Positions 33,601-52,007 of a stretch of 64,000 nucleotides of DNA are shown here, in pieces. The notes under the pieces were generated by a model, which saw only the letters and a program-made list of their open reading frames with translations, did no database searches and had not been told where the DNA came from. Origin of the DNA: Alphaproteobacteria bacterium (GTDB lineage: Bacteria; Pseudomonadota; Alphaproteobacteria; UBA828); assembly GCA_965237415.1 (NCBI GenBank), contig CBDEFM010000002.1:3552001-3616000 (forward strand). The letters are read 5' to 3'. Both the position numbers and the translations under genes were made by a program. Within the stretch, counting starts at the first letter, position 1. Every line of letters starts with the position of its first letter.

Positions 33601-33806
33601 GACGTGAACCCGGTGGGCACCGGGCCCTGGAAGTTCGTGAGCTGGGAGGCAAGCCCACGGCAGGCGAGGTGCCGAGCCCGCTCAATCCGCCGCCGGGCTG
33701 CCGCTTTCACACCCGCTGCCCCATGGCCGAGGAGCGCTGCCGCGTCGAGGAGCCGCCGATACGGGAGATCGCCCCCGGCCACCACGCCGCCTGCCATCTG
33801 ATCTGA
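33601..33806 (+). pseudogene. Fused remnants of a peptide ABC binding protein and ABC ATPase
   Basis: [13 protein letters not shown] immediately followed, in another frame, by [24 protein letters not shown]. Confidence 0.75.
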
Positions 33807-34018
33807 TTGGAAGGCGACGTGACGCTGACTTGGACCGAGCCTCGCGCGGGCGATATCGCCGGACGGGCGCGAGCGCTGCAAAGCATGGTCAGCGCCGGTA
33901 TGCCGCTCGACCAAGCCGCATCCGCTTCCGGTATTCTAATTGTCGTCGACGGGTAGGTTAAAGGGTAAGGCGGGCGGGCACTCCAGCATCCGCCAAAAAA
34001 CATTCACTGTTTGAGCGC

Positions 34019-34759
34019 TCACGCTGGGCGCATGCGACCCGCTATCCGCGCGGCGGCCGAGGTAAGGTCAAGAAAATTAACCTGGACTTCAGGATCTCGG
34101 GTAATAAGTGGCTGGAGAATAGAGAAATAGCACAATACCAAATCATCTAGTGGCGAAAAATTACTCCAATCGTAGTACCTAATATTTGTGAAATCTTTTG
34201 AGTGCTCTGTCAAAAACTCTTCCAGTGTTCCGGTAAAATCCACTAGACCGTCGTGCTGAAATTTTTTCCATGACTCTCTCGCCTCATCTTGTGCCTTTCT
34301 TGCCTCATTCGCGTCCCTAGTCACCTGACACTGAAGTTGAGATCATTTTCAATTGGCAGTGTCGTCACACTAAGTCGCTCTATTGTCGAAGAATGTGGTC
34401 GTGCAATATAGTTGTCTTTATGTGGCGAACTTCAGATTCAGGTGACTAGCATCTACGGTCAAAGACCAAAACAATTCATCTAACTCGTGCCAGTGTTCGT
34501 ATTGACCCTGAACGTGCAAGTGCCGCTTCAACGATTTCAAGGCAAGCTCGATCGCCAAGGGATACATCACAAACAGAATTTGCGACATCCCAACCATTTC
34601 TTGTTCTTCTCTCGTTCGGCGGCCCACTGTAGATATGGTTCGTGAACCGCCTCCCAGCCGTTGTGCCAGCTGTTCCTTCAGCCAGTACAGTGCGGACCCC
34701 AATTCGAGTGTCCGCAATCCGTTGACTCGATCTGAGGGAGCCGAAGCTGTTGTTGTCAT
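34019..34759 (-). pseudogene. HEPN-like protein gene interrupted by a MITE
   Basis: AIELALKS..HWHELDELF and DFTNIRY motifs; removing 34321-34449 restores one 203-aa ORF. Confidence 0.7.
34321..34445. mobile_element. 125-bp MITE with CTAG target duplication
   Basis: TIRs TCACCTGAcaCTGAAGTT / AACTTCAGatTCAGGTGA (16/18); CTAG at 34317-34320 and 34446-34449. Confidence 0.85.
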
Positions 34760-34935
34760 CGCGGCAACCTCATCTTGTTTCAATAGGGTGGTTTCAGATC
34801 GCGTCAAACAAGCGCCCGTTTCTCAAGCGTGCCATCCACTCGGCGATTCCGTCCACGGGGGCAGTTGCCTCGCGTGAGGCAATTCGGCGCTGGTCACTTT
34901 CGGCTCCATAGCCAACAACGGCTGGAGTTGAGTTT

Positions 34936-35217
34936 TCACTTCTTGCCTAGCGAAACGTAGAACTCATCCATACCGGCGCAGAGCTCTTTCGCGGTCTGCC
35001 TCCTCGCCTTGTCAGAGATTCGCCTGCACGCCTCGTTCAGTGCAGAGCTCAGGTCGTCATGAAGCGATCCTATACCATCAAGTCCCACCCCATATTGCCT
35101 AGTCGTTTGATTAACCGAGATCTTTGCAGAAATTCCCTTCCCCGACACCGTCATCTCGCAATCATCGGGTTTGCTCACGATGAACTTCTCACCGTCGTAC
35201 ACGTGTTCCGTTGTCAT
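34936..35217 (-). CDS. Hypothetical protein (93 aa)
   Basis: ATG with GGAG RBS; plausible composition; no motif recognised. Confidence 0.55.
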   Translation of the reverse strand: MTTEHVYDGEKFIVSKPDDCEMTVSGKGISAKISVNQTTRQYGVGLDGIGSLHDDLSSALNEACRRISDKARRQTAKELCAGMDEFYVSLGKK

Positions 35218-35296
35218 GGTCGCTCCGCTCGTCGCGATGTGCCTACATGGTGCCGACATGGCGTTTTCGACCCTCCGCCGAAATCCACCTAACCCA

Positions 35297-35351
35297 TTGA
35301 AAAGATTGGTGGGCGCACTAGGACTCGAACCTAGGACCCGCTGATTAAGAG
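35297..35351 (-). repeat. attR: duplicated 3' half of tRNA-Lys
   Basis: 55 bp identical to 51801-51855; starts at the anticodon loop CTCTTAA. Confidence 0.95.
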
Positions 35352-35414
35352 ATGGCATATGACCAGAGGGCAGGGGTTGTCTTGAGTTGGCTGGACATAG
35401 AAGAAATATATTTA

Positions 35415-35427
35415 TATCAATCAGTTA
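35415..35427 (+). promoter_or_regulatory. IHF-consensus site in the att arm
   Basis: TATCAATCAGTTA matches WATCAANNNNTTR. Confidence 0.55.
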
Positions 35428-35533
35428 TCAGGTGGGATAGGCGGTTTCGAAGGTCAGGGTGTGCAGTGAGTGATCGTGACATTACTTCAGTTTGTTGACT
35501 TTGGTGTTGATCAGATGCGGGCGATGCACCAAC

Positions 35534-36772
35534 ATGGGTCGCATGGGCGAGACCATTGGAAAGCGCGTGGCGAGGGTGAAGCTGACCCTCAGCAAGCGGA
35601 ACATCGACAACCTCGAGGCTGGGAACAAGCCCTGGATCGCGTGGGACGACAAGCTGACCGGCTTCGGGATGAAGGTGTATCCCTCGGGCAAGAAGTCCTT
35701 TGTGGTGAATTACCGCAGCGGAGAGGGGAGTCGGAAGGATCGCAACAATCGTGTCGTCATTGGGCACTACGGCAGGATAAGTGCGGAGGAGGGGCGACGG
35801 CGCGCCCACAAGCTGCTTGGTGAGGTTGCCAGCGGCGGCGACCCAGCGGAAGAACGCGCCGAAGCCCGTCGCATGCCGCTGCTTTCCGAGGCCTTCGAGG
35901 ACTACATGGCGGTCAATCCAAACCGGAAGGCACGCACGAATGAGGACTATCGGAAAGTCTTCAGGCGTTATCTCAGCGACTGGGGGAAGCGTGCCCTGGA
36001 CGCCATTACCCGACAGGACGTGGAGGCCCGCTTCAACAGTCTGACCGTCGAAAGCGGTTGGGCTTCAGCCAACCAAGCCATATCGCTATTGCGTTCGGTG
36101 TATCGACGGCCTTGCGTCGACATCGAGGGGTTACGCAGCCCGGTCGACCTGTGGCTGGCCGGTGGTGGCAAGTTCCATCGAAATGTGCGGCGCAAGATTT
36201 CGTCGCCGGCCGAAGTGCTGCCGCGTTGGCGGATGGGTATCGAGGCCGCGGTGGAAAATCGCGTGATGAGAGACACGCTGTGGTTTGGGGTCTACACCGG
36301 TATGCGCCTCAACGAGGTCCTTCCGCTGCGCTGGGAGAGCGTGGATCGGGATGGCCGGGTCTTCCGGGTTGACGAAACCAAGACGGGGGTTCCGCTTGAA
36401 CTGCCCATTACCCGTCAGGTCGGAACGGTTTTGGATCGTCGTTGGGCGGAGAACGGCGATCAGCAGGGCGGCTGGGTATTTCCATCCCGTCGCAGCGGCA
36501 CGGGGCACATCATAGGCGTGAACAACTATTACGCGGCGATCGGCAAGGCCGGGGGCGCGAAGTTCTGGTATCACGCGCTGCGCAACTGCTTCATTACGAT
36601 CGCTGAACGGGACCTGATGATCGCTCACACCCTGACCAAGCGGCTGGTCAACCATGTCCCGCCGAGGGATGTGACCGAAGGGTACGCAGCAGATTGGACA
36701 ATTGACCAATTGCGTGAGCCTGCCCAAAGGATTGCCGACCGAATCGAGATCCTGATGGGGAAAGGGCTGTGA
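35534..36772 (+). CDS. Tyrosine integrase with N-terminal arm-binding domain
   Basis: WDDKLTGFG arm domain; TGMR, HALR, LVNH, EGY catalytic residues. Confidence 0.93.
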   Translation: MGRMGETIGKRVARVKLTLSKRNIDNLEAGNKPWIAWDDKLTGFGMKVYPSGKKSFVVNYRSGEGSRKDRNNRVVIGHYGRISAEEGRRRAHKLLGEVASGGDPAEERAEARRMPLLSEAFEDYMAVNPNRKARTNEDYRKVFRRYLSDWGKRALDAITRQDVEARFNSLTVESGWASANQAISLLRSVYRRPCVDIEGLRSPVDLWLAGGGKFHRNVRRKISSPAEVLPRWRMGIEAAVENRVMRDTLWFGVYTGMRLNEVLPLRWESVDRDGRVFRVDETKTGVPLELPITRQVGTVLDRRWAENGDQQGGWVFPSRRSGTGHIIGVNNYYAAIGKAGGAKFWYHALRNCFITIAERDLMIAHTLTKRLVNHVPPRDVTEGYAADWTIDQLREPAQRIADRIEILMGKGL

Positions 36773-36934
36773 TCGCCCAAGACTTGGGCCACGCGTTGGA
36801 TGTCGATTGGCCCGAGAAATCCTTCGTCTTTTCGGGGCCGCACGGACGCAATTCGGATGGCTAAAGAGGGTTGCATTGCAGATTATTCAGGCTATGCCCA
36901 GACAACTCAGAGCAAGGCCTGACAATGAAACTGT

Positions 36935-36979
36935 CTCATAACCTGAAGGTCGTAGGTTCAAATCCTACCCCCGCAACCA
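36935..36979 (+). repeat. 3' half of initiator tRNA-Met (att-like remnant)
   Basis: CTCATAACCTGAAGGTCGTAGGTTCAAATCCTACCCCCGCAACCA; no 5' half upstream. Confidence 0.88.
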
Positions 36980-36981
36980 AT

Positions 36982-37017
36982 AAATCCCCGTTATCTCAGT
37001 AGGATAGCGGGGATTTT
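36982..37017 (+). terminator. Intrinsic terminator-like hairpin after the tRNA-Met fragment
   Basis: AAATCCCCGTTATC / GATAGCGGGGATTT stem with T tail. Confidence 0.7.
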
Positions 37018-37073
37018 GGATTCCAAGTCAGCGGAGTTGCTGGATAGCGGTACTTCATAGGTACCGGAATTTT

Positions 37074-38540
37074 GTAAAGTTGAGAGCACCCCAGGGCAGA
37101 GCTGACGTTTTTGTTCGGTCACGGCGTGATGAAGGGCCGCACGGGGTGACGGAGGACCATGATCTCACCGGTTGAGAGTGCGCCGCCAGTCCTTTCGGAG
37201 GGGGCGGAGCCAGATGTCCCTCTTCGGTTGATCCCGTCTGGTGTGTCGGTCGTAGCGGCCCCGTCCCTTGGTGGTTCCGACGAGGGTCCAGCCGGACGCC
37301 TTGTATAGCGCGCCGGTGAAGCGCGGGGTCTCGACGAAGGTCTCGATGAGCACGGGCGTGGTGTTGTAGCGCTCGGTCCAGTCGTCGGGCAGTTGGCGGC
37401 GGACCAGGGAGAGGATGTGCGAGCCCAGGTTCGGGATCGCGATCCAGGGCAGGATCAGGAACCTCGGGTTGTCGATCACGAGCGGAAGGTTCTTCTCGCG
37501 CAGTTGCGGCGTCCATCCGATGAAGCTGTCGCGGGGCGCGAGCTTGCGTGCCGCTGTGCTGAAGCCGAGCATGGCGAGCGGCCCGCCGTCGCGGTCATGG
37601 ACGACGTAGCGCATCTGGGCGCCGACCAGGGTCTTGTATCCGAGGTAGTGGTAGCGGGCGATGAACTCGTTCCAGCGCTTGCCCTCGCGGGTGTAGCGCA
37701 TGACGGGGCGAAGGCTGAGCGGGCGGACCTCATCGAGCGTTGTCGGCGGCGGGAACGGCGGCGGTTCGGTGTCCGGTCCGAAGACCATCGGCCGGCGCGG
37801 GGGGCGTGGCCATTTCGGCGGCGGCAGCGTGATCAGGCCGTCGTTGTACATGGCCAGCATCGTGACCCTGGCCATCATGTCCTTGAGTCCGCCGTCGGGC
37901 TTGAACCAGCCGATGCGCCGGCAGAACTCCCTCGACAGTGCATGGCGGTTGGGCGGCGGGTCGGCGGCAATCAGCGCACGCAGCAGCGCCATCTCCCCGG
38001 TGGTGAAGTGTCGCCCGTAGTAGCGGCACTCGACGTCGGAGGTCATCCCGGCGCCATCAGAGCGCGCCTGCGTTCCTCGCTCATGGACCATGGAAGCCAT
38101 GGCGACAGGTCGTCTGGCGGTTGGCCGCCATTATTCGCGCAAGCTTGAAGCCACGCCTCCAGCCAGCGCCGGACATCGATGCCGTTGGTCTTCAGCGTGG
38201 CGACGACGGAGTACATCAGCGCGGTGAACCGCGCGCCAGTCTCGCTGTCGGATCCGAAGCTCAGCCGTCTTCCGATGACCGGGCCCCTGAGCGCGCGCTC
38301 GGCGGCATTATTGTCCATGGGCACCTGGGGCTTGTCGACGAAGACGCTCAGCCCGTCGCGATGGTTGAGCAGCGAGCGCAGGGCCTTGGTCTCACGCGCC
38401 CCGGCCGGCAGGGCGGCGAGTTCCCGCTCGGCGGTTGCGAACAGGCGCTCGACCTCCACTTCCAACGCGCCCTGCGCTTGCGCGAACGCCGCCGTCTGGC
38501 GCTCGAGAGCGGGGTCGTAATGCTCCAACCTCGCCTCGTT
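37074..38540 (-). mobile_element. IS66-family remnant (C-terminal tnpC + DUF4338 + end)
   Basis: PMDNNAAERALRG..R..SFGS motif at 38043-38540; GTAAAGTTGAG terminus at 37074. Confidence 0.78.
37165..38046 (-). CDS. DUF4338-family protein (passenger of an IS66-like element)
   Basis: YHYLGY..VGAQMRY, RDSFIGW, RFLILPW, ETFV, GTTKGRG; ATGA-coupled to the transposase. Confidence 0.82.
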   Translation of the reverse strand: MTSDVECRYYGRHFTTGEMALLRALIAADPPPNRHALSREFCRRIGWFKPDGGLKDMMARVTMLAMYNDGLITLPPPKWPRPPRRPMVFGPDTEPPPFPPPTTLDEVRPLSLRPVMRYTREGKRWNEFIARYHYLGYKTLVGAQMRYVVHDRDGGPLAMLGFSTAARKLAPRDSFIGWTPQLREKNLPLVIDNPRFLILPWIAIPNLGSHILSLVRRQLPDDWTERYNTTPVLIETFVETPRFTGALYKASGWTLVGTTKGRGRYDRHTRRDQPKRDIWLRPLRKDWRRTLNR

Positions 38541-39396
38541 CACCGCCGAGAACATCCAGGCCTTTCTGCCCACCTTCAAGAACGCCCTCATCCGCCGCGG
38601 GCTCCCCCAGCGCCTATACGTCGACAATGGCGCCGCCTACCGCTCCCGTCAGCTCGTCCTGATCTGCGCAAAGCTCGGCATGGCCCTCGTCCATGCCCGG
38701 CCCTATCAGCCGGCTGGGAAGGGTAAGATCGAGCGCTTCTTCAGGACGCTGCGCGCCGGCTGGCTCAACCACCTCGATCCTCAGGCTCTGGACAGCCTCC
38801 AGACCCTGAACCGCAGCCTCTGGGCCTGGATCGAGGGCGAGTATCACAACTCCCCCCATCGCGGCATCGAGGGGCGCACGCCGCTCGAGCAATGGGCACT
38901 GGCCAGTGCAGGCGTCCGCTACCCCGATGCCACCCTCGACCTCGACGAGATCTTCCTCTTCGAGGCCAGGCGCCTCGTCCACAAGGATCGCACCGTCAGC
39001 CTGAACGGCCGCCTCTACGAGGTCGATCCCCTCCTCGTCGGGCAGAAGGTCATCTTGCGCTACGACCCGGACGCGCCGCCCTCCCGGCCCCTCGATGTCG
39101 TCCACGACGGAAAGCCCGCCGGTAAGGCCAGCCAGCGCCTCGTCGTCCGACACCATCTCACCGGCCTCGATCGGGATGAGGTCGACGCCTATCTCAAGCA
39201 CCGCCTCCGCCTCGCCGGGTGCGAGCTGCCCCTGTTCGAGGCGCCCGCCGTCGAGGCCCTGTTCCAGAGCGCCAGGGGCCTGCCGCGGCAGATCAACCGC
39301 ATCGCCCACTACGCCCTCTCCGCCGCCGCCCTCGACAAGGCAAGAACCGTCAACGCAGAGCACCTCCAGCACGCCCTGGACGAGCTCAGGCCATGA
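38540..39396 (+). pseudogene. DDE transposase fragment fused by deletion to an ExeA-like ATPase C-terminus
   Basis: LYVDNGAAY, GKGKIERFFRT, YHNSPH, then HRLRLAG..GLPRQINRIA; no Walker A. Confidence 0.78.
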
Positions 39397-39593
39397 CTAT
39401 CGTCATCACCCTGCCCGACGAGATCAGCGACGAGACCGCCGCTCACATCGTCGACTTGTGCTACCAACTCGGCCACGTTCTCGAAGGGCACTACTACGGT
39501 CAGATCAGGCGCTATTGCCAGCGCGAGTGCCCGCCACCCTTCGACGACGGGGAACAGATGCCGCTCTTCCCGGAGTTGGATATCCCGTTCTGA
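39393..39593 (+). CDS. Small hypothetical protein of the DDE/ExeA element
   Basis: ATGA-coupled; 66 aa, ends DIPF. Confidence 0.5.
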   Translation: MTIVITLPDEISDETAAHIVDLCYQLGHVLEGHYYGQIRRYCQRECPPPFDDGEQMPLFPELDIPF

Positions 39594-39829
39594 AGCGCCG
39601 TCGCGGGTCAGCGCACGGCCGGGGCCGGCCCAATCATGGTGGCACCACCGCCCGTCCCCTTCCGGCTCCCTGAAACGCTTGAGCGCCGCGGGAGCCGGAA
39701 CGGGAATCACTCCCGCTGACCCTCAAGCCACGCCCCAACAAGCAGGACGAAACGATCCGCTCGCCCCTCGCGAGGCAAGCAGAAATGCGTCGGCACCGGC
39801 TCGTCATCGATCCGGCAAAGCCCGAACAA

Positions 39830-39901
39830 TGTGAGAAATCCACGCCTCCGACGCACGAAATAATCCGGGAAATCCATCGTCAAATAATCTGCGATACAAC
39901 A
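39830..39901. mobile_element. Right end of the DDE/ExeA transposon
   Basis: Terminal TGT (minus strand, 39901) with repeated GATTATTT and GGATTTC motifs; truncates an IS110 fragment. Confidence 0.6.
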
Positions 39902-40386
39902 CCCCAACTCTGTCGGCTGATATCGATCGCGACATACAGCGTGCCATGCTCGGTACTGGCCGGCGCAGCGGTCTCGTTTCGTGGAGGCATCTTCTGGCTC
40001 CTGTGAGGGATTCTTGAACGACGGCACCGTAGCGTCGGTCGCCAATTCGGCCTCATAGGATCTTCGTAACCGGCTTCGTAGCAGCACAGGATACGGACCT
40101 CCCGGCCGAGATCCCGTTCGGCCTTCGCCCGATGACGCTCGATCAAATCCCTGAGGCCCTCCACATCCGCGCTGCCAAGCGAGTGCAGGCCGATGCGCTC
40201 GCTCGTCGGACCCTTGATGCCGACTACCCAACTCTTCCCGCTGATCTCGATCGCGACATAAAGCGTGCCGTAGTCCGCACCGGCCGGTGCCGCAGTCTGC
40301 TTCCTCGAAGGCATTCGGTATCTCCTAGTGAGGCTTTCAAAACAGCAGGACCGTAACGTCGGTCCCGATTCGGCCTCATAGGATCT
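39902..40386 (-). mobile_element. Two tandem truncated IS110-family left ends
   Basis: YVAI[ED]IS..SW twice, CCYEAGY; 19-bp identical leader at 40045-40063 and 40368-40386. Confidence 0.8.
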
Positions 40387-40412
40387 ACGGGGACAAGCTA
40401 CCGCCGAAGCCC

Positions 40413-40464
40413 GTGGCACACTTTTACTCCGCCGCGCCGGTACACAATCCCGCCGCCGTTGACA
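40413..40464 (-). mobile_element. IS21-family terminal repeat remnant
   Basis: TGTCAACGGCGG..GGCGGAGTAAAAGTGTGCCA, the IS21-type end pattern. Confidence 0.62.
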
Positions 40465-40517
40465 GCTTGGGCTTTCTCACCTGAGGGGTAGGAAACGTAA
40501 TCGGTTTGAGGATGTCC

Positions 40518-42167
40518 TCAGCCGAATTCTCTGGGGTCCACACGATCCGCGAAGCGGCGCTCCAACTCACCTTCACCGTTGCAAGCTGGGCAGTCATTCC
40601 CGAGAAAATGACGTTTTCCATTGCAGAGGGGGCATTCGATAGACTGATAATCCTGCACCTCGATTCTATCTAGGTCTCGACGATCAATCTGTGCCTCGCC
40701 GCTGCAAACTGGGCAATCGTCGCCCTTACGTCTTCCTTGGCCGTCACACACGGGACAATCGACTTTCTGGTAATCTTGAAGTTCGACCGCTTCAGCGAAT
40801 CGCCGCTGCATACTTCCTTCCCCGCCGCATTCAGGACAGTCTCGGTCCTCGTAACTACCCGCACCATCACAGAGGGGACATTCGATCGACTGATAATCCT
40901 GCACCTCGATTCTATCTAGGTCTCCACGGTCAATCTGTGCCTCGCCGCGGCAAGCTGGGCAATCGTCTCCCATATATCTTCCTTGGCCGTCACACACGGG
41001 ACAATTGACTTTCTGGTAATCTTGAAGTTCGACCGCTTCAGCGAAGCGCTGCTGCATACTTCCTTTCCCGCCACATTCAGGACAGTCTCGGTGCTCGTAA
41101 CGACCCGCACCATCGCAGAGGGGACAGGCGACATCTTCGTAGTCCCGCACGTCAATGCTATTGGCGTAGCGTCGGGCCATCCGAGCCTCTCCGTCGCAGG
41201 CGGGGCAAGGTTCTTGCGTCAGGGTCCCCATGCCCTCGCAAACGGGGCAGTCAACGTACCCGTACTCTCTAAGGTCGATTACCTTGGCAAGTCTCGGCTC
41301 AATCTCACGATCTCCGTTACATACAGGGCAGTCGGTTCCCTCATGTTGGCCGCCACTCTCACAAAGCGGGCAGGTCACGAAGCCAAAGGCCGCAACATAC
41401 TTCTTTCGAATCTTCTCTGCCCTTTTAAGACGCTTCACTATGTTTGACTTGCTTTTCGACAACGAGATCGCGTCTGCGGATATCGTCTCGTAAACAGCAT
41501 ACTTTGGATCAGTCTCGGATACAGGAGCGAGCCCCGGAAGGGCAGCGAGCGTCTCCTTTGCAAGTTTCTTTACTGCCTTAATCTGTTCCTTTGTTTTGGC
41601 TCTTTTTAGCTGCTTTTTAAGGCCATTACAGTTCTCCAATACGTAGAAAAGTTGGTGGCTAACTTCATGCTGTGTACGCCAGAGCATTACCCGATAACGT
41701 CGCAGTGCTTGCTTGAAGATGGCGACGAAAAAAGCGTTTTCTTTATCGGGACCGAACAGTCCATTGTCGTAAGCGACATGGTGGTTGGCGCAGAGCCACA
41801 AGAGATTTTCTGGATGGTTATTGTCGCTCTTTGCAACCGGGTCCAGGTGTGCCGCTTCACAAGTATCCTTATGACTGTGACAAACGGCGCACTCGCCGTT
41901 TGCCTCTTGCTTGATCTCGCGCCTAATGCCGGTGGGGATGTGAGGGCGTCGTCCGTCTTTGCGAGGCCACGGCCGCTTCAGCCAGTTGTTGAAATCGAGA
42001 ACCTCTTCTTCATCGAAAAACAAGGTATCGTTCTTGATCTTCGCAGCTTTGAGTTTTCGTTTACTGCCGTGCTTCGGGGAGTACGAGGTAAGCCACCGCA
42101 GCAATGTTGGTGACATCGCTGTCAAAGCCGCTGCCTCGTACTCGCTGATGAGAGTTTTCTTGACCAT
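40518..42167 (-). CDS. HTH-HNH nuclease with seven 41-aa CxxCxG zinc-ribbon repeats
   Basis: CAVC..EAAHLDP..N.PENLLWLCANHH; repeats in the C-terminal half. Confidence 0.85.
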   Translation of the reverse strand: MVKKTLISEYEAAALTAMSPTLLRWLTSYSPKHGSKRKLKAAKIKNDTLFFDEEEVLDFNNWLKRPWPRKDGRRPHIPTGIRREIKQEANGECAVCHSHKDTCEAAHLDPVAKSDNNHPENLLWLCANHHVAYDNGLFGPDKENAFFVAIFKQALRRYRVMLWRTQHEVSHQLFYVLENCNGLKKQLKRAKTKEQIKAVKKLAKETLAALPGLAPVSETDPKYAVYETISADAISLSKSKSNIVKRLKRAEKIRKKYVAAFGFVTCPLCESGGQHEGTDCPVCNGDREIEPRLAKVIDLREYGYVDCPVCEGMGTLTQEPCPACDGEARMARRYANSIDVRDYEDVACPLCDGAGRYEHRDCPECGGKGSMQQRFAEAVELQDYQKVNCPVCDGQGRYMGDDCPACRGEAQIDRGDLDRIEVQDYQSIECPLCDGAGSYEDRDCPECGGEGSMQRRFAEAVELQDYQKVDCPVCDGQGRRKGDDCPVCSGEAQIDRRDLDRIEVQDYQSIECPLCNGKRHFLGNDCPACNGEGELERRFADRVDPREFG

Positions 42168-42544
42168 TGTACGAAACACTGTAAGTGAATGATTACGAAA
42201 CGGATTTTGACGAGTCTAGATTTCCTCTATATTTCTCGATCGCAGACTTCACAATGCCGACGACCTTGGTCAGGAATGTCCGAGCTTGTAGTCTCAGGAC
42301 TGGTCTGACCGGCGAAATGTTATCCTCGTATGGGCGGCAGATTACTGTAGCACGGCGGGAAACCGAATTGTAACCGGGATCGGTGTAAGCAGTCATCCAA
42401 TCGTTGCGGCGCTGATCAGCAAGCCGTTTCTTCAGGAGGTCAAGCAGGGCGTTGATCGATGAACAGCGCCTCGATCGCCGTTGCATCTTGGCCGAGACGG
42501 CAACGTTCCACCGCGATCCGCATTCTAAAATGGCTGCAGGCCAC

Positions 42545-42836
42545 GATGACCGGGACGCGGGTCGGCATCCACGGTAGTCTTGATCGCGAGTAGGAGCTGC
42601 GGGACGCGTTGGATTTCGTCGATGATCGCCCGGTCAAGATCGCAGACGAAACCAACGGGATCGGCGGATGCGGAGTCGAGGACGGTGGCGTCGTCGAGCG
42701 TTACGAATGGGACATCGTTGCCCGCAATCCGCTGCGCAAGCGTGATCTCGCCTGATTGCCGGGGGCCGCAAAACAGCACGACCCTGGTGTCCGTCAGGGC
42801 TTCCCGAATCCGCCCTTCAACAAAACGAGGATACAT
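42545..42836 (-). pseudogene. AAA ATPase (DUF4143-type), N-terminal fragment
   Basis: GPRQSGE (Walker A Lys lost), IIDEIQRVP; truncated after ~95 aa. Confidence 0.75.
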
Positions 42837-42970
42837 GCCGCCGTCTCGGATCACTGACCGTTGGAAAGATGACCTTCAACGAATTGAAAGTCAATATCCG
42901 ACCAATTGAAACAACGCAGCCGACTCTGCCGCTGACGGATGGGGCCTGCAAGTGGAAGCACGGTGGCCGA

Positions 42971-43630
42971 TCAGCGAGTGGGCGAAGATTCCGCAGCGAT
43001 CGCCAGATCACCGTCGATGCTGTCACCAATACGGGCAGCAGACGCCTTGACGGTGTCGCGAGCGAGGTGGGCATAGCGGGCCGTCGTCTGAACCTGGGTG
43101 TGACCCAGCAGCTTCCCGATCATTGGCAATCCTTCGCCGAGCGCCAGTGCGCGCGAGGCGAAGCTGTGGCGCAGGTCGTGGATCCGCACATCGTCGAGCT
43201 CAGCGCGCGCACGGATACGCCTCCAAGGATGCTGAAGGTCGGTCAAATGGCTGCCCGGCTTTTTGCCTGCGATCACCCAACAGTTGTCCTCGTCGCGGGG
43301 CAGGGACTCCAGGAGCCGCACTGCGGACGGGGCAAGCGGAACCGCCCGCCCCCCGGTCTTGGCGTCGGGAAGCCGCAGCTCGCCCGCCTCCAGGTCAACA
43401 TGCTCCCACTGTAGCTTCTGGATCTCCGACAACCGGCAACCGGTCAGCATCAGCAGGCGAATCGCCACCAACGCGGAGCGGGACTCCGAACCTTCCTGGA
43501 GAATCTCGTCCAGCACGCGCCCGAGACGGGCGAACTCCTCGGCACTCAGGAAGCGCTCGCGCTTCTCCTCCCTGTAGCGCTTGACGTGTAGACATGGGTT
43601 CGAGCCGTCGGGACGGAGGCCCCACATGCC
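42971..43630 (-). pseudogene. Tyrosine integrase, 5'-truncated
   Basis: TGCRLSEI, HDLRHSFAS, LGHTQVQTTARY; no arm domain. Confidence 0.85.
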
Positions 43631-43675
43631 AGCGGCCGATCTCATAGAGACTATGTCCTGCCTTAGAGCACCACG

Positions 43676-45601
43676 CTACCAAGCCGCACTTTCCAACGCG
43701 GCCTCTGCTACCGCGCAGTAGCGCGCCAGGGCTGGCTCTGCGCGAACGAGACGACGAATACTGTGAAGTAACCGCGTCGATGATTCCTTTCCCTCAACTT
43801 CGAATGCAAGTTCGCTGATCCATTCGCCGGCGAAAGAAGCCCAATTCTCCAACTTCTCGTTTGACGCAGCAGCCAACATAGCGATGCGTATTTGATCCTC
43901 CGCCTCAACGGTCAATCGTTTCCTGCGCCGCATGACCCGATCCAATACCCGCAGCTCTTCCGCAAGGTCCGTGCTCCGAGTAACCGCGGCTACCGTCGCC
44001 AAGCCTCCAATCAACCCGAATAGATTATCATCACTGTCGGCGATTTCAATGGAGTACTTCACTCTACGCAGCGCAGTAGCGGCTAACCCCGCATGACTGG
44101 CGGGCATGCCAAATAGACTAGCCAGGTTCACAAGTCTGGCGAACGAATGTGGTTCCAAGTACTCTGATTTCAGATCGCTTGCCACGTCTTCCAACACATC
44201 GTCAGAGATAGTAGGCACTTCTGACTTAGCTTCCCCCTCCAAAGGTCCAGGAAGCATTCGGAAAGGCCAATCGACCGCGGTCGCCAATCTTGACTCCTCT
44301 CCAACCACGAGGCAGCGCAGCGATTCAGACTTGATTCCCTTCTGCCATCTCTCCACTGCGTTTGAAATTCGGCCCATAAACTCTGCACGCAATTGATATG
44401 GACTAACAAAATCCGGCAACCACCGAGGCTCCAGGCGCAAATCTACCAAGCCCTGTAAGAAGAATACATTGCCGAACCCGCTCGTTTTGGCCCAGTCGAC
44501 AATGGACTCCGCTTTTTCTTCACTTGCATATATTGCGCGAATGATCAGCGAAGCCTGTGCAATAGCCGCCTGCTTTCGGTAAAAGGGTTGAACCTGCCCC
44601 AGCACATGCCTGCGGCTAAGTTCCGATCCAACGAGTACGACGATGGCCGAGAGTAGTGAAAAGCGCCCGCCTTTGTGTTCCGGATCATCCGAGATGAACG
44701 CTTCAATAATCCGCTCAACAAATGGTTCAAGCTCCCTATGCTCCTCAATACTACGAAGTGCCACTTCCACTGCACCCAGCTGCGAAATAGGGTCCCCATG
44801 GTCTGCTAGCCATTCGTACGCCCCTAACAACTCCTGTGAGCTAAACCCCTCAATCCCTATACGCGCCGCTATAGTGCCTGCCGAACACATCAACAGCGAA
44901 TAGAGAAACCCACTAGTAGAATTCCACTTCTGAAGATCGCAGATGAGCTGCGCCGCTCCACCGTTGATGTACTCGTCAGTATTAGAAGCCGAACCTAGGG
45001 AACCAATGAGAAGGTCATAGTACCGCGTTTCGCCTTGCACTAGTGTACCCAGGTCGACACGCCTTTGGGAAAAACCGGACCCAATGTTCTCAAAGGTGCT
45101 AACGGGTGTAAGTGTCAGCGCTTCACGCAACCGCGCGAACTCGTCATCACTCAGCGGTCTGCTAGCCAACCTCTCCATCCATTGCTGTCGTTCACTCCTG
45201 TCAAAATTGACACGCTCTGCAATTTCGTTGAACCAAGAAACCCGAATCTCCTTCTCCTTTGCTAATCCGGAGTGGTCTTCAAGAAGAAATTGGCTACCGG
45301 CGTCCGCGAGCACAAAGGACCAGCTAGAAGCTTTGGCTCGTGCGGTAAGTCGCCACAAGTTGCCCTTGTCGTCCTGAATAGTGACTTCCTCTTCAGGACG
45401 GCCAATGGCTTCTCGCATACCACGGTACAACTCCTCTCGTCGAAAGCACGGCCCATCTTTCCCAATTGCTACACCAGCTGTAGCATTTAGCTCCCAATGA
45501 TCGACGAACTCCTGGTCATCCAGCAGGGATCTCCGCAAGCAAGGAGCCAGGAATCCAAAGGCGGCCACTACTAAGGAATGCTTCGTACGGCTATTGGTCA
45601 T
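43676..45601 (-). CDS. Unknown 641-aa protein, coupled to the upstream large gene
   Basis: Long lower-GC ORF with an 11-bp overlap; appears helical; no motif recognised. Confidence 0.8.
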   Translation of the reverse strand: MTNSRTKHSLVVAAFGFLAPCLRRSLLDDQEFVDHWELNATAGVAIGKDGPCFRREELYRGMREAIGRPEEEVTIQDDKGNLWRLTARAKASSWSFVLADAGSQFLLEDHSGLAKEKEIRVSWFNEIAERVNFDRSERQQWMERLASRPLSDDEFARLREALTLTPVSTFENIGSGFSQRRVDLGTLVQGETRYYDLLIGSLGSASNTDEYINGGAAQLICDLQKWNSTSGFLYSLLMCSAGTIAARIGIEGFSSQELLGAYEWLADHGDPISQLGAVEVALRSIEEHRELEPFVERIIEAFISDDPEHKGGRFSLLSAIVVLVGSELSRRHVLGQVQPFYRKQAAIAQASLIIRAIYASEEKAESIVDWAKTSGFGNVFFLQGLVDLRLEPRWLPDFVSPYQLRAEFMGRISNAVERWQKGIKSESLRCLVVGEESRLATAVDWPFRMLPGPLEGEAKSEVPTISDDVLEDVASDLKSEYLEPHSFARLVNLASLFGMPASHAGLAATALRRVKYSIEIADSDDNLFGLIGGLATVAAVTRSTDLAEELRVLDRVMRRRKRLTVEAEDQIRIAMLAAASNEKLENWASFAGEWISELAFEVEGKESSTRLLHSIRRLVRAEPALARYCAVAEAALESAAW

Positions 45602-48600
45602 CGTTGGTCTCTAAAAGTTGTTCACAAGCGTCCACGCTATCGGCGACATATTCCTTTGCCCAAGTCAACAGATGCTCGTAAGTCTCAGGGTCTTCTTCTC
45701 GCACCGACTCGAGAATGCGTGTTTCAAACCAGCGCCAGTAGGCTTCCTTTACCGATTGCGGAGGCTCCACGAGCAACGACATCAACATCCAAATCCAATT
45801 CCTGTATCGTTCCATATGCTGGTCGAGGTTGTCGTCTAAACGATGTGCCCAGCCCCTTGGATCGGCTAAAGTAAGCAACCAGTCAGATCGCGCCGCAGCG
45901 GTGGCCTCGTCCATCTCGCCAATCCACTGTTCCCTCAAGCTAAACAGGCACGCCTGATTTACTCCGTTCAGCCACTCTCGCTCGCTTGGAAGCTGAAGCA
46001 TATTACTCATTTGCACCCGTTGGATACTCTCTCGAATAGCCTTAAGCTCTCCGGTCTCCTCTAGAACGCCGTCTCGGACATTGCTACTGGACACTAGCTC
46101 ATTCAATTCGTCGGCATATAATGGTGTCAGAGCGAAGTTTGCCCGTCGCAAAGTGGTAAGAGCATCTTGTTGTTGTGTCTCTGAAATAGCACCGCGTTCC
46201 AGTAAGATGTCCAGCAGATCGATCATAGTGATTATAGGGCGGGAGGTAGTGTCTAGAGTAATAGACCTGTGACGGTTTACATAGCGGTCATCAACCACCC
46301 CTATATCTGAGTCTGTCATTAATTGCAGCAAGTCGATAGTGGGATGCGAGGATATACTTGGTGAATCATCATCGTTCCCACGGCGGGGCGCCTTCCCCAG
46401 ACGAATCTTCTCGCTTTCAAGGCTTTCCCGCAAGCGGACGCGAAGGCGATCCACCATTGAAACCACATCACCAGCACTTGCATCGTAAGAAATTAGAGAG
46501 TCCGCTTCTTCAACGTCTTGGTGTGATACAAATGCCGTTATCTCAGCGCGATGAAGTTTCGGGAGCAGGCCAAGAAAGTGTAGATGTGACGTGGACAAGC
46601 TGTCAAGATAGAGCACCGCCCCATCTCTAATCTCCGGCTCAGTCGGCCATGGTCTTTCTCGAATGTTCAGAGAGGCGTATGCGCTCTCTTGCTCTCGCCG
46701 GGTCAAAACGCCCTTTTCTGCAAGCTTTTTCACTAAGGTGGAACAGCTGCAAAGATGATCCTGGTACTCGCTGATGTCGACCTCTTGCTGCATAAAGGAG
46801 CTAATCTTGTGAATAGGGCCTCCACGTACAACCAGTCGCTGTCTTTCATCCAAGTGTTGTGTCGAAGAAGCCGCGGCAATGAAAGCAGCCAATGATCCTC
46901 CTAGTTCGGTGACCAACTTTTCTGGCGCGGCAGCACTCTCGTCAAAAACACGTAAGTGGCCTTCCGATATCATCGTTCGGAGTTCGCGGGCAGCAAGCAC
47001 ACGGCTCGGCTGATGGAACAAGATTCGTGCCTTTTCTCCCAAAAGCCATCCGAGGGTGCTATGAGGGATTACGATGCTATCGAACGTATCAATGCACTCG
47101 TCAAATAGATTTAGAAACTCCAAAGCTATAAGTGTCGTTGCATCCATCGAAACAACGTCGGCCCTTACCGTGACTGCTTCTCGGGCTCCACTAAATGCAT
47201 ATATAAATGGTCGGCGGCGAACGTCCGACTCGTGCACATTAGTCAGCGCGGGCATCAAATACAGGCTAAGCAAGGACCGGTTCAGCGCTTGTGCTGCAGC
47301 GAACAGCGGAATTTCGCCTCTTTCAAGTAATTCCCAGACACGTTCCTCATGCCCCTCCCAGTCCGGCTTTCTCTTAAGTAGATCATCAATCGTCGCTACC
47401 TGCACAGGCCCTTTGGGGCCTGAGAGTTCTGCTGCTCGCTGTATCCACGAGTGTACTTCAGCGGCATCTTCCCAGCCGCCTGTTGAAGCCAGATGATAAC
47501 TGCCTACCAATATTGTTGGATCGTCCATCGAGCGACTCGCCGCTTCCTTGATCAGATCCCTTCCCCGGCCCGCACCAATATGCTGTGCGATCTCACCAGC
47601 TCGGAGAAGATCGGTGGGCGTACGATCAGCCCGGGCAAGCCATTCAGCTTCTACAAAACCCTGAAGCGACTCCCAATCTCCCGATACCACTGCCAAGCTA
47701 ACCTGTAGATGACGAGCATCCGGCGAATCTTTCAATTGACGAAGTGCACCGACAGCTACCAATGCATCGTTCAGCTTGCCACACTCAAGATATGTCTGTG
47801 CTCGCAATAGTCGCATATCGGTATCTTGAGACCAGAGCGCAGGATATGTCTCAAGCACTGTGATCACTTTTTGAGGCTGCTCGCAATTGTGCAAAGAAAT
47901 CACATATCGACGCACATCTTCAAGATCTCCTCCAACTTCAACAAGGGTCTTGCCGTGCTCGCAGGCTTTCCTCCAATCACCCGCGTCTTCGTATGCTCTC
48001 ACGAGCAAACGCAATTCGATGATTGACGTATTCTCGTTATATGCTGCCAGTCTCTCCGCGATGGGATCCGCGCCGGAGGTCTCTGACAGTTCGCGACGAA
48101 GACGAGCGACGTCTCGTGCGGACAATGGCTTTCCCGCAGCTTCTTCCAGTAATTCCTCGGCCTTTGCAGTTTGTCCCGCATTAGCCAACATTTCGATTTC
48201 AATAAAATAAAGCCCCCTGGGGTCAAGATGCTTAAAGAGTTGCTCCCGGTGTTCGTTGATATAGGCTGCGATATCTGCATGGCTGCCCTTGCTTAGGGCT
48301 AAGGCCAGTCGTGCGATTGCGGCATCCCGCGACATACCTCCACTGAGGGCAGTCTGCCGAGTAACCTCGGCTTCGGCCCGCTCTATATCTATACTCACGC
48401 CAAACTGCAGTCCCAGGCTAAGTCGGCGCAGAAACGTTGAAGGGTCATTGACACTCTCAAGCAGTTCCTGACGCGCGTCTGCGGAGTACTCCGGGTCCAC
48501 CAGCCGTAACCAAAGCGCCCTGTCCTCCGCTAGCCCTGCCATTCCCATTAGACCGAGCGACTTCGCAACGTTATGCAATTGATCGTACAGTTGAATGGCT

Positions 48601-50228
48601 GTTCGTCGATGCTGGATGGCGAGCGGTTCACTGCGCAAGGGAAACTTCACAGCATCAAACGGCATGTCTTGAGCCAAAAACGTTTCCCGTAGTTCGTCCG
48701 GTACCGCCTGCAAAAGAAGGGCATCTGCGCTTGCTGCAAGTAGCCCTGGCGTTTCCTCCCAATCGTTCGGCGTCAAAACTCCCGCCATATCAAACGCTAG
48801 GTTCCAACTTCCCTCCTGCAAAGCGCTTCGAATATAGGAGAACTTGCCATGGCCATCGAGATCGGCGAACGTTAGTCCAGCCTCATCCAACCACGTATTC
48901 GCACTCTTGAAGCCCCTTGCTCCGAGTACCTGAATGTATGCGGCCCCGTAAGCTACTGGCGTTCCAATGCCACAAAGCTCACGTATCGCGTCGGGTATAT
49001 CACCTTTGAGTGACTTCACAACGCTTCGAGCAATGTTGTAAACTTCGCTATTGGCGGTTCCGATGCGGTTCACGAGCGACTCTGCTTCATCGAGATCGCT
49101 TCCAGCAAGAAAGCGGCAGCACCAAGAGAGCGCTGTATCTTTGTGTTCTTCGTTCGCCTGCGCGAGATCACCGCCCTCGAGATTAGCAACAAGGCTCTTC
49201 ACTTCGTCTATTACTAGAAACTCAGAAAAGTATCGGCATTTGCGGATACGTTCCAGCCGGCGGTCAACTTCTGTGTCGATTATTGAGGCGTGAGAACCGT
49301 GCATTGCGGGCCCTAGAGTGATGGCACCTCGCATATCCGAAAACGCTGCAATCTGGCCTTTGGTGAGCGAAACAAGCTCTTGAAGCTGGTCAGTGTTTCT
49401 TTCAAGAACTTGATCAGGACGCGTTACCTGAAGTGGCGGATCAAAGGAGCGGCGTATGAATTCCCGCACATGGATATAGACCTCAGCCTCTTTATTAGTT
49501 GGTTTGCATATACTCATATGGTCTTGGTCAACAGGGATGGGTGTCTCGGGCAAACCGGCGTCTGCACTCTCGGTTGTCACGATTTTCCCTATCGCGGTTG
49601 GCAGCTGAATGCCGAATACTCCAGATGGCTTTCCCTCAGAGAGGAGTAAGTTTCCCATGTTATTGTTCATACTGTGGTGTCTATACCAATGATTTAGATC
49701 GCGAAGTTGAGAACTACCCAAAATCAAGTCGTTCGTCACTTCGGATGGCCTAATCAAGGGCCATAACATTCTTGACAGGTTTGCCAAGAGAGCGCCTCGA
49801 TGAGGTGTTCCGAGGAAAGCTATGCGCTTTACACGGACCAGGAAATTTCGTGCTCTCGGGTTTGTGCCTGATTCTCTCTCCGCATTACGTAGAATTTGCT
49901 TTGCGACCAGCCCGCCAAGACTGTGAGCAACGAAGATAATATTGCCGCCTGCAAGCCCTGATTCTGCCAATAGGAGAGCCAAGATGCTGTCTGCACGTTC
50001 TGGAATAGAGATTCCAGTTCCACCCCAATATGTTTTTGCAGCCGGGTATCCCACAAGCCATAGATCGATGTCGGGAATATCGTCTTCCAACCGGAGGGGC
50101 CATAGCTCTGTAGAGTTATCAGTCGTAGTTGTCCAAGTTCTCTCAATATGTCCTGAAAGCCCGTGGATGAATAAAACGTGTGTCTCTACATTCGTAGCCT
50201 TTGTTGAGATGGTGCGTAGGATGGACAA
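45591..50228 (-). CDS. 1545-aa alpha/beta hydrolase - TPR-like - PIN-like protein (putative defence)
   Basis: FIHGLSG, AHSLGG, FLGTPHRG, DHMSICK; helical repeats; SMDATTL..IVIP and VVDDR; TTG start with GGAG. Confidence 0.82.
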   Translation of the reverse strand: MSILRTISTKATNVETHVLFIHGLSGHIERTWTTTTDNSTELWPLRLEDDIPDIDLWLVGYPAAKTYWGGTGISIPERADSILALLLAESGLAGGNIIFVAHSLGGLVAKQILRNAERESGTNPRARNFLVRVKRIAFLGTPHRGALLANLSRMLWPLIRPSEVTNDLILGSSQLRDLNHWYRHHSMNNNMGNLLLSEGKPSGVFGIQLPTAIGKIVTTESADAGLPETPIPVDQDHMSICKPTNKEAEVYIHVREFIRRSFDPPLQVTRPDQVLERNTDQLQELVSLTKGQIAAFSDMRGAITLGPAMHGSHASIIDTEVDRRLERIRKCRYFSEFLVIDEVKSLVANLEGGDLAQANEEHKDTALSWCCRFLAGSDLDEAESLVNRIGTANSEVYNIARSVVKSLKGDIPDAIRELCGIGTPVAYGAAYIQVLGARGFKSANTWLDEAGLTFADLDGHGKFSYIRSALQEGSWNLAFDMAGVLTPNDWEETPGLLAASADALLLQAVPDELRETFLAQDMPFDAVKFPLRSEPLAIQHRRTAIQLYDQLHNVAKSLGLMGMAGLAEDRALWLRLVDPEYSADARQELLESVNDPSTFLRRLSLGLQFGVSIDIERAEAEVTRQTALSGGMSRDAAIARLALALSKGSHADIAAYINEHREQLFKHLDPRGLYFIEIEMLANAGQTAKAEELLEEAAGKPLSARDVARLRRELSETSGADPIAERLAAYNENTSIIELRLLVRAYEDAGDWRKACEHGKTLVEVGGDLEDVRRYVISLHNCEQPQKVITVLETYPALWSQDTDMRLLRAQTYLECGKLNDALVAVGALRQLKDSPDARHLQVSLAVVSGDWESLQGFVEAEWLARADRTPTDLLRAGEIAQHIGAGRGRDLIKEAASRSMDDPTILVGSYHLASTGGWEDAAEVHSWIQRAAELSGPKGPVQVATIDDLLKRKPDWEGHEERVWELLERGEIPLFAAAQALNRSLLSLYLMPALTNVHESDVRRRPFIYAFSGAREAVTVRADVVSMDATTLIALEFLNLFDECIDTFDSIVIPHSTLGWLLGEKARILFHQPSRVLAARELRTMISEGHLRVFDESAAAPEKLVTELGGSLAAFIAAASSTQHLDERQRLVVRGGPIHKISSFMQQEVDISEYQDHLCSCSTLVKKLAEKGVLTRREQESAYASLNIRERPWPTEPEIRDGAVLYLDSLSTSHLHFLGLLPKLHRAEITAFVSHQDVEEADSLISYDASAGDVVSMVDRLRVRLRESLESEKIRLGKAPRRGNDDDSPSISSHPTIDLLQLMTDSDIGVVDDRYVNRHRSITLDTTSRPIITMIDLLDILLERGAISETQQQDALTTLRRANFALTPLYADELNELVSSSNVRDGVLEETGELKAIRESIQRVQMSNMLQLPSEREWLNGVNQACLFSLREQWIGEMDEATAAARSDWLLTLADPRGWAHRLDDNLDQHMERYRNWIWMLMSLLVEPPQSVKEAYWRWFETRILESVREEDPETYEHLLTWAKEYVADSVDACEQLLETNDDQ

Positions 50229-50592
50229 GTCAATTCTCCGACGAAGCAGATGTTGTCTGGCTTCGGAGTGATGCAGCGTACACTTCAGTCATTTTCTTTG
50301 CTTCGCGAGTATATCTGCGATCATTGTTGACTTCCGCGATTTACACCCTTCGATGTTGTCCAATCCTTCACTCTCTGCACTCCGATCCCGGCTTCGACCG
50401 CGCCGGACATCGTATGCGCCAGCGAACGCAGAAAGCACTCAGTATGGCGGAGGGTACGGACCTCCGTGCCCACAGGCGAGGCCCTGTTGTTGGAGGTGAC
50501 CCAAGGCCGCCTATCGGCTGCTGATGGCCGCGCTCGCCTGGAGAGCGAATACCGCCACGCTCTCGGTTCGGCAACAGTTTCGGCAGTGCTTC

Positions 50593-50910
50593 CTAGCGAA
50601 CCGTATCTACCTTGAGATGAAGTCGTTCGCGATCCTGAAGGCAGGCAATGACCTCGAATAGGTTTCGAGCTTGGGGATTCCCGTTGGGACTGAACATGCG
50701 CATCAAGCTCTTTGGCGACTTCTCAGTCAGGCCGCCCAGCGCTTGAAAGCCGATCGTGGCGTTGATGTAGTCGCGCAAAACCGCCTTGCCGGTGTCAATG
50801 TCTCCCGACAGCAGGCATTCGACCCCCTCCTTGAGCAGCTCTTCCCGGAAAGCTGGATCGCGGTCGCTACGCGCCTTGATCGTTTCCTTGAAGTCGCGTG
50901 TCAGAGACAT
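50593..50910 (-). CDS. Antitoxin / DNA-binding protein of a TA pair
   Basis: LTRDFKETI, LRDYINATIGF, SPKSLMRM..GNP. Confidence 0.85.
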   Translation of the reverse strand: MSLTRDFKETIKARSDRDPAFREELLKEGVECLLSGDIDTGKAVLRDYINATIGFQALGGLTEKSPKSLMRMFSPNGNPQARNLFEVIACLQDRERLHLKVDTVR

Positions 50911-50915
50911 GGCTC

Positions 50916-51245
50916 TCAGGCCTCCCGTCGTTTGCGCCGCTTGTAGTCCTGCCAATGACTTCGTGCGGTTTCGATGTCCTGCCGCTGGTGCCTCTTGGTG
51001 CCTCCGCCCAACAGAATGACCAGCGTCTCGCCGTCCTTGCCAAAATATATCCGATAGCCGGGACCGAAATCGATACGGTGCTCGAATACACCGGCGCCGA
51101 CACCCTTGACGCCGGAAAGATTCCCCAGCTCCAACCTTACTAGGGCTGTTGTCACCTTTGCCGCGGCCGGCGAGTTGAGCCGATTGAACCATCTCGCATA
51201 AGGGCTGCGGCCCTCAAGGTCGACATATTCCCTGACTGCGATCAT
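50916..51245 (-). CDS. RelE/ParE-family toxin (addiction module killer type)
   Basis: RLELGN..VKGVG.GV.E.RIDFGPGYRIYFG, LLGGGTK..Q..DI. Confidence 0.9.
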   Translation of the reverse strand: MIAVREYVDLEGRSPYARWFNRLNSPAAAKVTTALVRLELGNLSGVKGVGAGVFEHRIDFGPGYRIYFGKDGETLVILLGGGTKRHQRQDIETARSHWQDYKRRKRREA

Positions 51246-51320
51246 CCTTAGAGGGGAACATACACGTTACCAATAGGTCGGTCAAGACTGCTCGCTTGGT
51301 CTAGGTCTAGATGCACGTGC

Positions 51321-51569
51321 CTATCCCGCCACTTGTGCAATCCTGCTGGCAATGCGGTTCGCGGCCGATTTGACGGGATCGTTGGCGAGATGAGCGTAGC
51401 GGGCGGTGGTCTGCACCTGGGTATGGCCGAGCAGCTTGCCGATCATTGGCAAGCCTTCGCCGACCAGGAGCCCGCCGCTGGCGAACGAGTGGCAAAGGTC
51501 GTGGATCCGGACGTCCTTGAGTTCGGCCCGCGCCCGGATGCGCCGCCAGGGGTGCTGAAGGTCGATGAG
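51321..51569 (-). pseudogene. Tyrosine integrase C-terminal remnant
   Basis: DLQHPWRRIRARAEL..HDLCHSFAS..LGHTQVQTTARYAHL; paralog of 42971-43630. Confidence 0.85.
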
Positions 51570-51810
51570 CGGAAGGTGAACTGGATGCTGAACTGTGCCG
51601 TGGGGACATCGAGATTTGCCGCTGCTGGGGCCACGGCCTTCCCTGAACCCCGTCCGATAGCTGTCGGATTGGCCCGGCGCAGTCGCTACCGCTGTCCATC
51701 CAGGATCAGAGAATGACCGGATCTGACCGCACCTCGTGGAGACTTGTTGACTTTTAGTTGACTTCGCTCAACATCGCATGATCGGTGATCGGATAACCCC
51801 TTGAAAAGAT

Positions 51811-51886
<76 letters not shown>

Positions 51887-52007
51887 ACATGCGGCGGTGC
51901 CGCGGCGGTGATGTGCCATGATTCAGCCGCATGCGCAACCGGCGCCCGCGCCCTCGCGGCGCCATGTCCCTCGCGGCGCGCGGGGTCGTCGCACCATTCG
52001 GGTCTGA

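Follow-up and report, generated by a model that had tools for sequence, protein, structure and literature searches.

The DNA stretch analyzed here (the window) comprises 64,000 nucleotides, positions 3,552,001 to 3,616,000 of contig CBDEFM010000002.1 (G000:C2:3552001-3616000 in our labels), from the two-contig, 4.75-Mb genome of an alphaproteobacterium of the UBA828 lineage (assembly GCA_965237415.1). The subject is a tyrosine integrase gene on the plus strand (35534..36772) that lies between the 3' halves of two different tRNA genes, and the genomic island of which it forms part. To its left, on the minus strand, is the 3' half of a tRNA-Lys(CTT) gene (35307-35351), which agrees at 45/45 positions with positions 32-76 of an intact gene further along the window. 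To its right, on the plus strand, is the 3' half of a tRNA-fMet gene, which starts at the anticodon loop and ends 1 nt after CCA (36935..36980); 36935-36979 agrees at 43/45 positions with positions 33-77 of the genome's own tRNA-Met(CAT). Both halves start with the anticodon loop, which reads CTCTTAA in the Lys half and CTCATAA in the fMet half. A terminator stands 3' of the fMet half (36982..37017, plus strand), in which a run of U residues trails a 15-bp hairpin (-22.6 kcal/mol, z = -4.84); 1 in 200 shuffled sequences folded as well, and a simple consensus terminator scan did not flag the hairpin. Inside the halves, a 30-bp arm at 35371-35400 matches the reverse complement of another at 36892-36921 at 23/30 positions. 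The integrase open reading frame (ORF; 35492/35534-36772) is the only one between the half-sites with a family match. A preliminary description of this DNA had reported these features, all of which hold, and had interpreted them as a ~1.7-kb two-headed attachment-site (att) cassette.

The integrase gene looks intact. Read from the ATG at 35534, its product is 412 amino acids (aa) long (426 aa if the ORF is taken from the TTG at 35492), and it aligns at full length with eight homologs. Pfam assigns it Arm-DNA-bind_3 (E value, 1.5e-14), SAM-like (6.2e-5), and Phage_integrase (1.8e-11) domains. Six residues, R258, K283, H347, R350, H374, and Y384, are invariant among the homologs, and we take them to be the catalytic R-K-H-R-H/W-Y set. 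Arm-DNA-bind_3 and SAM-like domains, together with a catalytic domain that has this set, identify a P4-type integrase. The closest homolog, at 77% identity, is locus L017 (G008:C5:33768-34994; relatives are labeled G003, G004, G008, G013, G028, etc., and homologous loci L017, etc.), and paralogs in the same genome are 59 to 68% identical. The 3' flank of the gene (36773..36891, plus strand) is also homologous to the G008 element: the BLAST match to L017 covers the integrase and extends to 36805, and by eye a weaker likeness seems to continue to ~36893, where the right arm starts.

The partner of the Lys half lies at the far side of a 16.5-kb interval (35352-51793). A 62-nt direct repeat, on the strand of the intact tRNA-Lys gene, connects 35290-35351 with 51794-51855 at 61/62 identity; it starts at the anticodon loop and includes 17 nt past the end of the tRNA. 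Its left copy, the displaced half 35307-35351 plus the 17 nt past the tRNA end, represents attR (35290..35351, minus strand). The right copy, together with the intact tRNA-Lys(CTT) gene at 51811-51886, represents attL (51794..51886, minus strand). The G+C content of the island is 0.50 to 0.63, compared to 0.64 to 0.72 in the flanks; the exception within the island is the segment at 37 to 40 kb (0.65 to 0.67), which is transposase debris. In the closest relative, G004, whose flank proteins are 89 to 92% identical, only ~1.4 kb separates the left flank (96% identical in DNA sequence) from the right flank, which has an intact tRNA-Lys gene (92%), and the 16.5-kb island is missing. A comparable island occurs in G008, where the same Lys half lies ~200 bp upstream of the L017 integrase start on the opposite strand and shares with the window an 18-nt extension past the tRNA end. 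There, the intact tRNA-Lys gene is 134.5 kb further on, and the arm next to it is 84% identical to window positions 51690-51890. No fMet half was detected beside the G008 integrase.

Islander maps islands in tRNA genes with an anticodon-centered crossover and recognizes them by a tRNA gene with a same-orientation cognate 3' fragment, an integrase inside, and a block of identity from the anticodon loop (PMC4383910). The window locus resembles the islands described there: the intact tRNA-Lys gene (51811-51886, minus strand) has a displaced, same-strand cognate fragment downstream (35307-35351, minus strand), identity starts at the anticodon loop, and the tyrosine integrase gene (35534-36772) lies between the two. 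The close relative G004, with conserved flanks, is without the island, with the caveat that the 1.5 kb beside the fragment is not shared. The locus differs from the islands as there described (PMC4383910) in that its integrase adjoins the displaced fragment and points into the island, and in that it also carries an fMet fragment without a validly placed partner gene; no same-orientation cognate gene has the fMet fragment downstream of it.

We consider it probable that the region is the far end of a 16.5-kb tRNA-Lys(CTT) island and that the fMet half is a dead relic of another island. Judged from the sequence, the sites that belong to this integrase form a Lys-Lys pair. Rather than one head of a ~1.7-kb cassette, as had been proposed, the Lys half is the distal repeat of the larger island, whose matched end is at the intact tRNA-Lys gene. 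In the mechanism that we envisage, the integrase would recombine an island site carrying a tRNA-Lys 3' half with the tRNA gene, with the crossover in or near the anticodon loop. Integration would regenerate the tRNA-Lys gene at 51811-51886 and displace the original 3' half to 35290-35351, beside the integrase gene. By analogy with other tRNA-targeting tyrosine integrases, the enzyme would both integrate and excise the island.

The sequences just inside the two ends of the island are consistent with this assignment. Between the Lys core and the integrase start is a putative P arm (35352..35533, minus strand), within which lie the left 30-bp arm (35371-35400), a site at 35415-35427 that is the window's only match to the integration host factor consensus, and, immediately before the integrase start, two TCAACA repeats (35493-35498 and 35505-35510). 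Upstream TGTTGA repeats are present at 18 of the 19 homologous loci listed, and at the exception (L033) another integrase fragment abuts there. At the other end, the putative P' arm adjoining the intact tRNA-Lys gene (51700..51793, minus strand) has two TCAAC repeats at 51745-51761 that are conserved in the G008 attL. In the tRNA-proximal arm of G008, a 22-nt block with the two repeats is conserved at all but one position, whereas neighboring positions vary. The sequence AAGTCAAC occurs five times in the window (0.74 expected), a number reached in 0 of 100 shuffles. All five copies are inside the island, three of them at its two ends and on one strand. The TCAAC(A) repeats at both ends are likely binding sites for the arm-binding domain of the integrase.

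The fMet half is not associated with such repeats, as none could be read from the sequence nearby. The genome's only initiator-type tRNA-Met(CAT) gene (C2:2326353-2326429, minus strand) shows a C1/A72 mismatch and is located 3.5 kb downstream of tRNA-Ile/tRNA-Ala genes; it probably encodes the initiator tRNA and closes an rRNA operon. This gene is 1.26 Mb from the fMet half and on the opposite strand, and it differs from the half by a compensatory T-stem pair and by its terminator. Further matches were found in related genomes. Positions 36900-36980 are 84% and 81% identical to two sites in G003, at which an arm lies between an fMet half and an opposite-strand integrase gene; the product is 27% identical to the window integrase and shares its domain order. 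The right 30-bp arm (36892-36921) resembles the arms in G003 (25/29, counted by hand) more than it does the left arm (23/30), and we interpret the sequence containing it (36892..36934, plus strand) as the truncated P arm of an fMet-targeting island with an integrase of this other family. Terminators of the relic's type follow intact tRNA-Met genes at L042 and L049, in G028 (90%) and G013 (86%), and recur with fMet halves in several relatives. Such halves are numerous within single genomes of the genus; G004, for instance, has 14 matches to 36800-37160, chiefly to the fMet half.

The relic spans ~215 bp (36892-37106), consisting of 43 bp of arm, the tRNA half, the hairpin, and ~90 bp more. Its left end is where the flank homology to the G008 integrase locus stops, and on the right it is cut by an IS66-family element. 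The relic would derive from an attR-type junction of an fMet-targeting island, whose integrase was of a different family, though alike in domain layout. Some deletion or rearrangement would then have brought this junction against the 3' flank of the window integrase gene, and the IS66-family element would later have truncated it on the right. On this account, the tRNA-Lys island, with its integrase at the tRNA-distal end, would hold debris of fMet-targeting islands of the second integrase family.

The likeness of the two 30-bp arms exceeds that of shuffled sequence. Local alignment of the inner flanks gives a score of 16, which none of 2,000 shuffles attained (maximum, 15), and a degenerate 23-nt motif made from the two arms matches perfectly at these two places and nowhere else in the 4.75-Mb genome. 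The arms lie at similar distances from their cores, 19 nt on the Lys side and 13 nt on the fMet side. An ungapped search allowing up to 9 mismatches found no match to them in 22 homologous loci; therefore, the arms are not a block conserved throughout the family. We attribute the agreement at 23/30 positions to both being inner arms that adjoin a core, in islands built to one general plan, and the apparent length of 30 bp to the point at which the relic was cut.

Two overlapping screens of integrase homologs bear on whether the double layout is a property of the family. The first covered 24 loci, 22 from species-representative genomes and two paralogs. Four had an upstream, inverted half-site (one Lys and three fMet), five had a downstream, co-oriented fMet half (partial or degenerate in two), and at 15 no half-site was detected. 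The second covered 29 loci from 41 related genomes, with one upstream Lys half, seven upstream-inverted and six downstream-direct fMet halves, and 15 loci with none. The double half-site layout was found at none of the loci (0/24 and 0/29). Homologs have one half-site or none, and the Met fragment probably traces to a different, dead element, which is the situation that the preliminary description had itself set against its proposal. Family members at 62 to 69% identity to the window integrase have the fMet half in two mirror geometries about the same core: ~50 bp downstream and co-oriented, or ~190 to 250 bp upstream and inverted. The two groups comprise L019-L021, L030, L065-L067, L070, L081, and L082 on the one hand and L023, L025, L037, L071-L074, and L086-L088 on the other.

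That the two half-sites make up a working unit, with the integrase using both the Lys and the fMet core for dual targeting or for inversion of the segment, is very unlikely in our estimation. The inverted half-sites, the homologous arms at comparable distances from their cores, an integrase that is intact by sequence, and the use of tRNA-fMet in two geometries and of tRNA-Lys in one by family members all fit such a unit. However, neither the dual-target nor the invertible form of this idea is supported by the homologs, among which the paired sites are not conserved at a single locus, and the fMet arm belongs with the 27%-identical integrase family. The fMet site retains only 43 bp of arm, is without TCAAC repeats, and is cut by the insertion sequence (IS). 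The invertible form faces the further difficulty that the cores differ, and both sites are junctions of inner arm, core, and outer flank, which is not the normal substrate pair. No inverted (strand-changing) joint is among those listed for four public sequence runs from four studies, although contigs cannot exclude rare forms. A related and quite unlikely reading sees a snapshot of attachment-site switching, in which a family that uses tRNA-fMet in two mirror geometries, with a derived clade that uses tRNA-Lys (one base different in the loop), is caught with both cores flanking one intact integrase gene, and in which the 1.75-kb piece may move or be lost as a unit, as is hinted at by a unitig in run X1 that joins 35351 to 37102. 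If the piece did so, the enzyme would act on both cores. A crossover by homologous recombination inside two related integrase genes, fusing the left end of a Lys island to the right end of an fMet island, would directly yield the observed order of Lys half, integrase, and fMet half, and paralogs at 59 to 68% identity exist in the genome. We regard it as highly improbable. In a comparison with each homolog in 50-aa bins, the nearest relative did not change along the integrase. The Lys-type homolog is evenly similar throughout (68 to 90% identity per bin), which speaks against an intragenic crossover between Lys- and Met-type islands. Moreover, homology to the Lys-type element continues for ~35 to 120 bp past the stop codon, the intact tRNA-Lys gene and its matched arm are still in place 16.5 kb to the right, and the fMet arm comes from a family too distant, at 27% identity, for such a crossover. 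The preliminary description had also considered a scar of recombination between related Lys- and Met-targeting islands. Of the three readings proposed there, this one alone is supported, and in a weaker form, with the fMet half as the relic of a dead and only distantly related element. No mosaic pattern is seen in the integrase.

The remaining alternatives depend on public sequence runs, which were available as Logan assembled contigs and unitigs rather than raw reads; rare forms drop out of contigs, and stretches left uncovered at the tRNA halves are repeat breaks and therefore uninformative. The small-share runs X2-X4 were given little weight. A misassembly of the junctions is unlikely because both are bridged by contigs, which come from two studies: X5 and X8 contigs span 35322-35654, from the Lys half into the integrase gene, and an X8 contig spans 35893-36964, from the integrase gene into the fMet half. 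The tRNA halves are repeats of the kind at which short-read graphs break, and the best contig holder may be the source sample and hence not independent, but with both junctions covered we give almost no credence to an assembly artifact that joined two repeat-bounded pieces. It is also very unlikely, we think, that 35352-37101 (1,750 bp) forms a separate unit that was acquired or removed at the Lys core, by aberrant excision by the integrase at a pseudo-site or as a mini-element. In favor of such a unit is a unitig in X1 that joins 35351 to 37102, with its left end exactly at the core boundary and AGAG on both sides. This joint is a single short unitig, however, with 28 nt on one side and placed at 90% likeness, and in the X1 metagenome the IS next to it reaches depths in the thousands. 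The junction could belong to another organism's copy of the IS. A second Lys core flanking the unit is also absent.

Several observations weigh against the interpretation of a tRNA-Lys island with a stray fMet relic. The same X1 unitig skips exactly the arm, the integrase gene, and the fMet module, ending 5 nt before the IS end, and its depth is ~43, compared to 4 to 8 for pieces of the integrase gene in the same run. The joint could mean that the 1.75-kb piece behaves as a unit, and it is weak evidence; the unitig may represent either a sister strain in which the piece was lost or was never present or an IS copy in another organism. Integrases of a clade at 67 to 69% identity have an fMet half just downstream, in the same orientation, and the arrangement on the right side is thus not alien to the family. 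In that clade, the fMet core follows the stop codon by ~50 bp, compared to 162 bp in the window, and the arm is unrelated; therefore, the window fMet half was not inherited from this clade. The left arm, on the Lys side, shares its motif with arms of the other integrase family, and the G008 Lys arm has, by eye, only a weak and shifted version of it. Finally, the 1.5 kb to the left of the Lys half (33771-35284) is common to neither G004 nor G008, and the locus therefore has an older history. This segment, between the conserved flank and the Lys fragment, is poor in G+C (0.50 at 34 to 35 kb) and has three ORFs without Pfam matches. It may be a remnant of an older island of which no repeat survives. 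No further decayed Lys fragments were found inside or to the left of the island at E < 1, which leaves a simple tandem array at tRNA-Lys without demonstration.

Among known systems, P4 offers an instructive comparison. In P4, arm-type sites between the core and the integrase start allow self-regulation, and in the P4-like islands of Escherichia coli the intact tRNA gene is succeeded by a co-oriented integrase gene. The window integrase shares with P4-type integrases the order of arm-binding, SAM-like, and catalytic domains, and candidate arm-type repeats likewise lie between the core and the integrase start. In contrast to the P4-like islands, the gene is at the opposite end of the island and divergent from the tRNA half, and only a remnant of another integrase is found beside the intact tRNA-Lys gene. 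The locus is also reminiscent of tandem or decayed island arrays, in that remnants of several integrases and attachment sites lie close to one another; it departs from a simple tandem array in that the fMet relic is inverted and sits inside the island of another tRNA. Islander reports 125 arrays of two or more islands (PMC4383910).

The feature is an ordinary decayed tRNA-Lys island with defense-like cargo and a stray attachment-site relic. It illustrates that a tRNA half beside an integrase gene need not be the site of that integrase and that the partner repeat may be many kilobases away. A single integrase family, at 60% identity or more, is associated with tRNA-fMet in two opposite geometries and with tRNA-Lys in one clade. 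This diversity could serve as material for studying how integrases change their targets.

Remnants of the second integrase family occur elsewhere in the island. A truncated gene (42971..43645, minus strand; Pfam Phage_integrase) encodes the C-terminal 224 aa of an integrase of the family whose arms match the fMet relic. Its product is 72% identical in amino acid sequence to the G003 integrases at L051/L052 and 87% identical to that of C1:695633-696283 in the same genome. The remnant nearest to the intact tRNA-Lys gene (51307..51699, minus strand) corresponds to the C-terminal ~70 aa of this family and was recognized by 76% DNA identity to 43027-43241 and a tblastn match. The source genome has more than 30 integrase-like matches. 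Tandem, co-oriented runs of two to four second-family genes occur at C1:695654-700693, C2:3847337-3850906, C2:2156251-2158638, and other places, some with fMet halves beside or between the genes. A decayed fMet-like 3' half with a terminator of the relic's type (75% over 80 nt) was also seen at C2:3015862-3015941, with no integrase match within ~29 kb. The same genome encodes a two-piece transfer-messenger RNA, a feature indicative of an alphaproteobacterium.

The element that cuts the relic (37107..38542, minus strand) is the first ~1.4 kb of a 3,565-bp IS66-family element, with Pfam DDE_Tnp_IS66 and DruA-like matches. The genome has three identical 3,565-bp copies and at least 10 near-full copies of the repeated part, with inverted ends where copies abut, and the window copy is truncated. 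In five cases, a tRNA-fMet gene or half is followed, after ~110 to 280 bp, by an end of such an element in the same orientation: 37107-38542 in the window, C2:2325993-2326128, C2:3680062-3681087, G035:C1:1952080, and G018:C1:4137894. This suggests a preferred place of insertion downstream of tRNA-fMet sequences. An 18-nt inverted pair (36870-36887 and 39883-39900) was considered as element ends and rejected, as it is at chance level, with several equal pairs within 20 kb.

The cargo of the island includes two genes at 43676-50228 on the minus strand. The product of one (641 aa) matches Permuted_GreAB-C weakly, below the cutoff of Pfam; that of the other (1,545 aa) has matches to hydrolase-like, TPR, HTH_upstream_double_PIN, and PIN-TPR-GreABC domains. 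Going by the Pfam names only, these would be a conflict- or defense-type pair. A 553-aa ORF (40518-42179, minus strand) has an HNH_2 match and four zinc-finger stretches of the DnaJ type (CXXCXGXG). It contains a 246-bp tandem duplication (40618-40863 and 40864-41109), the two copies of which are 92% identical.

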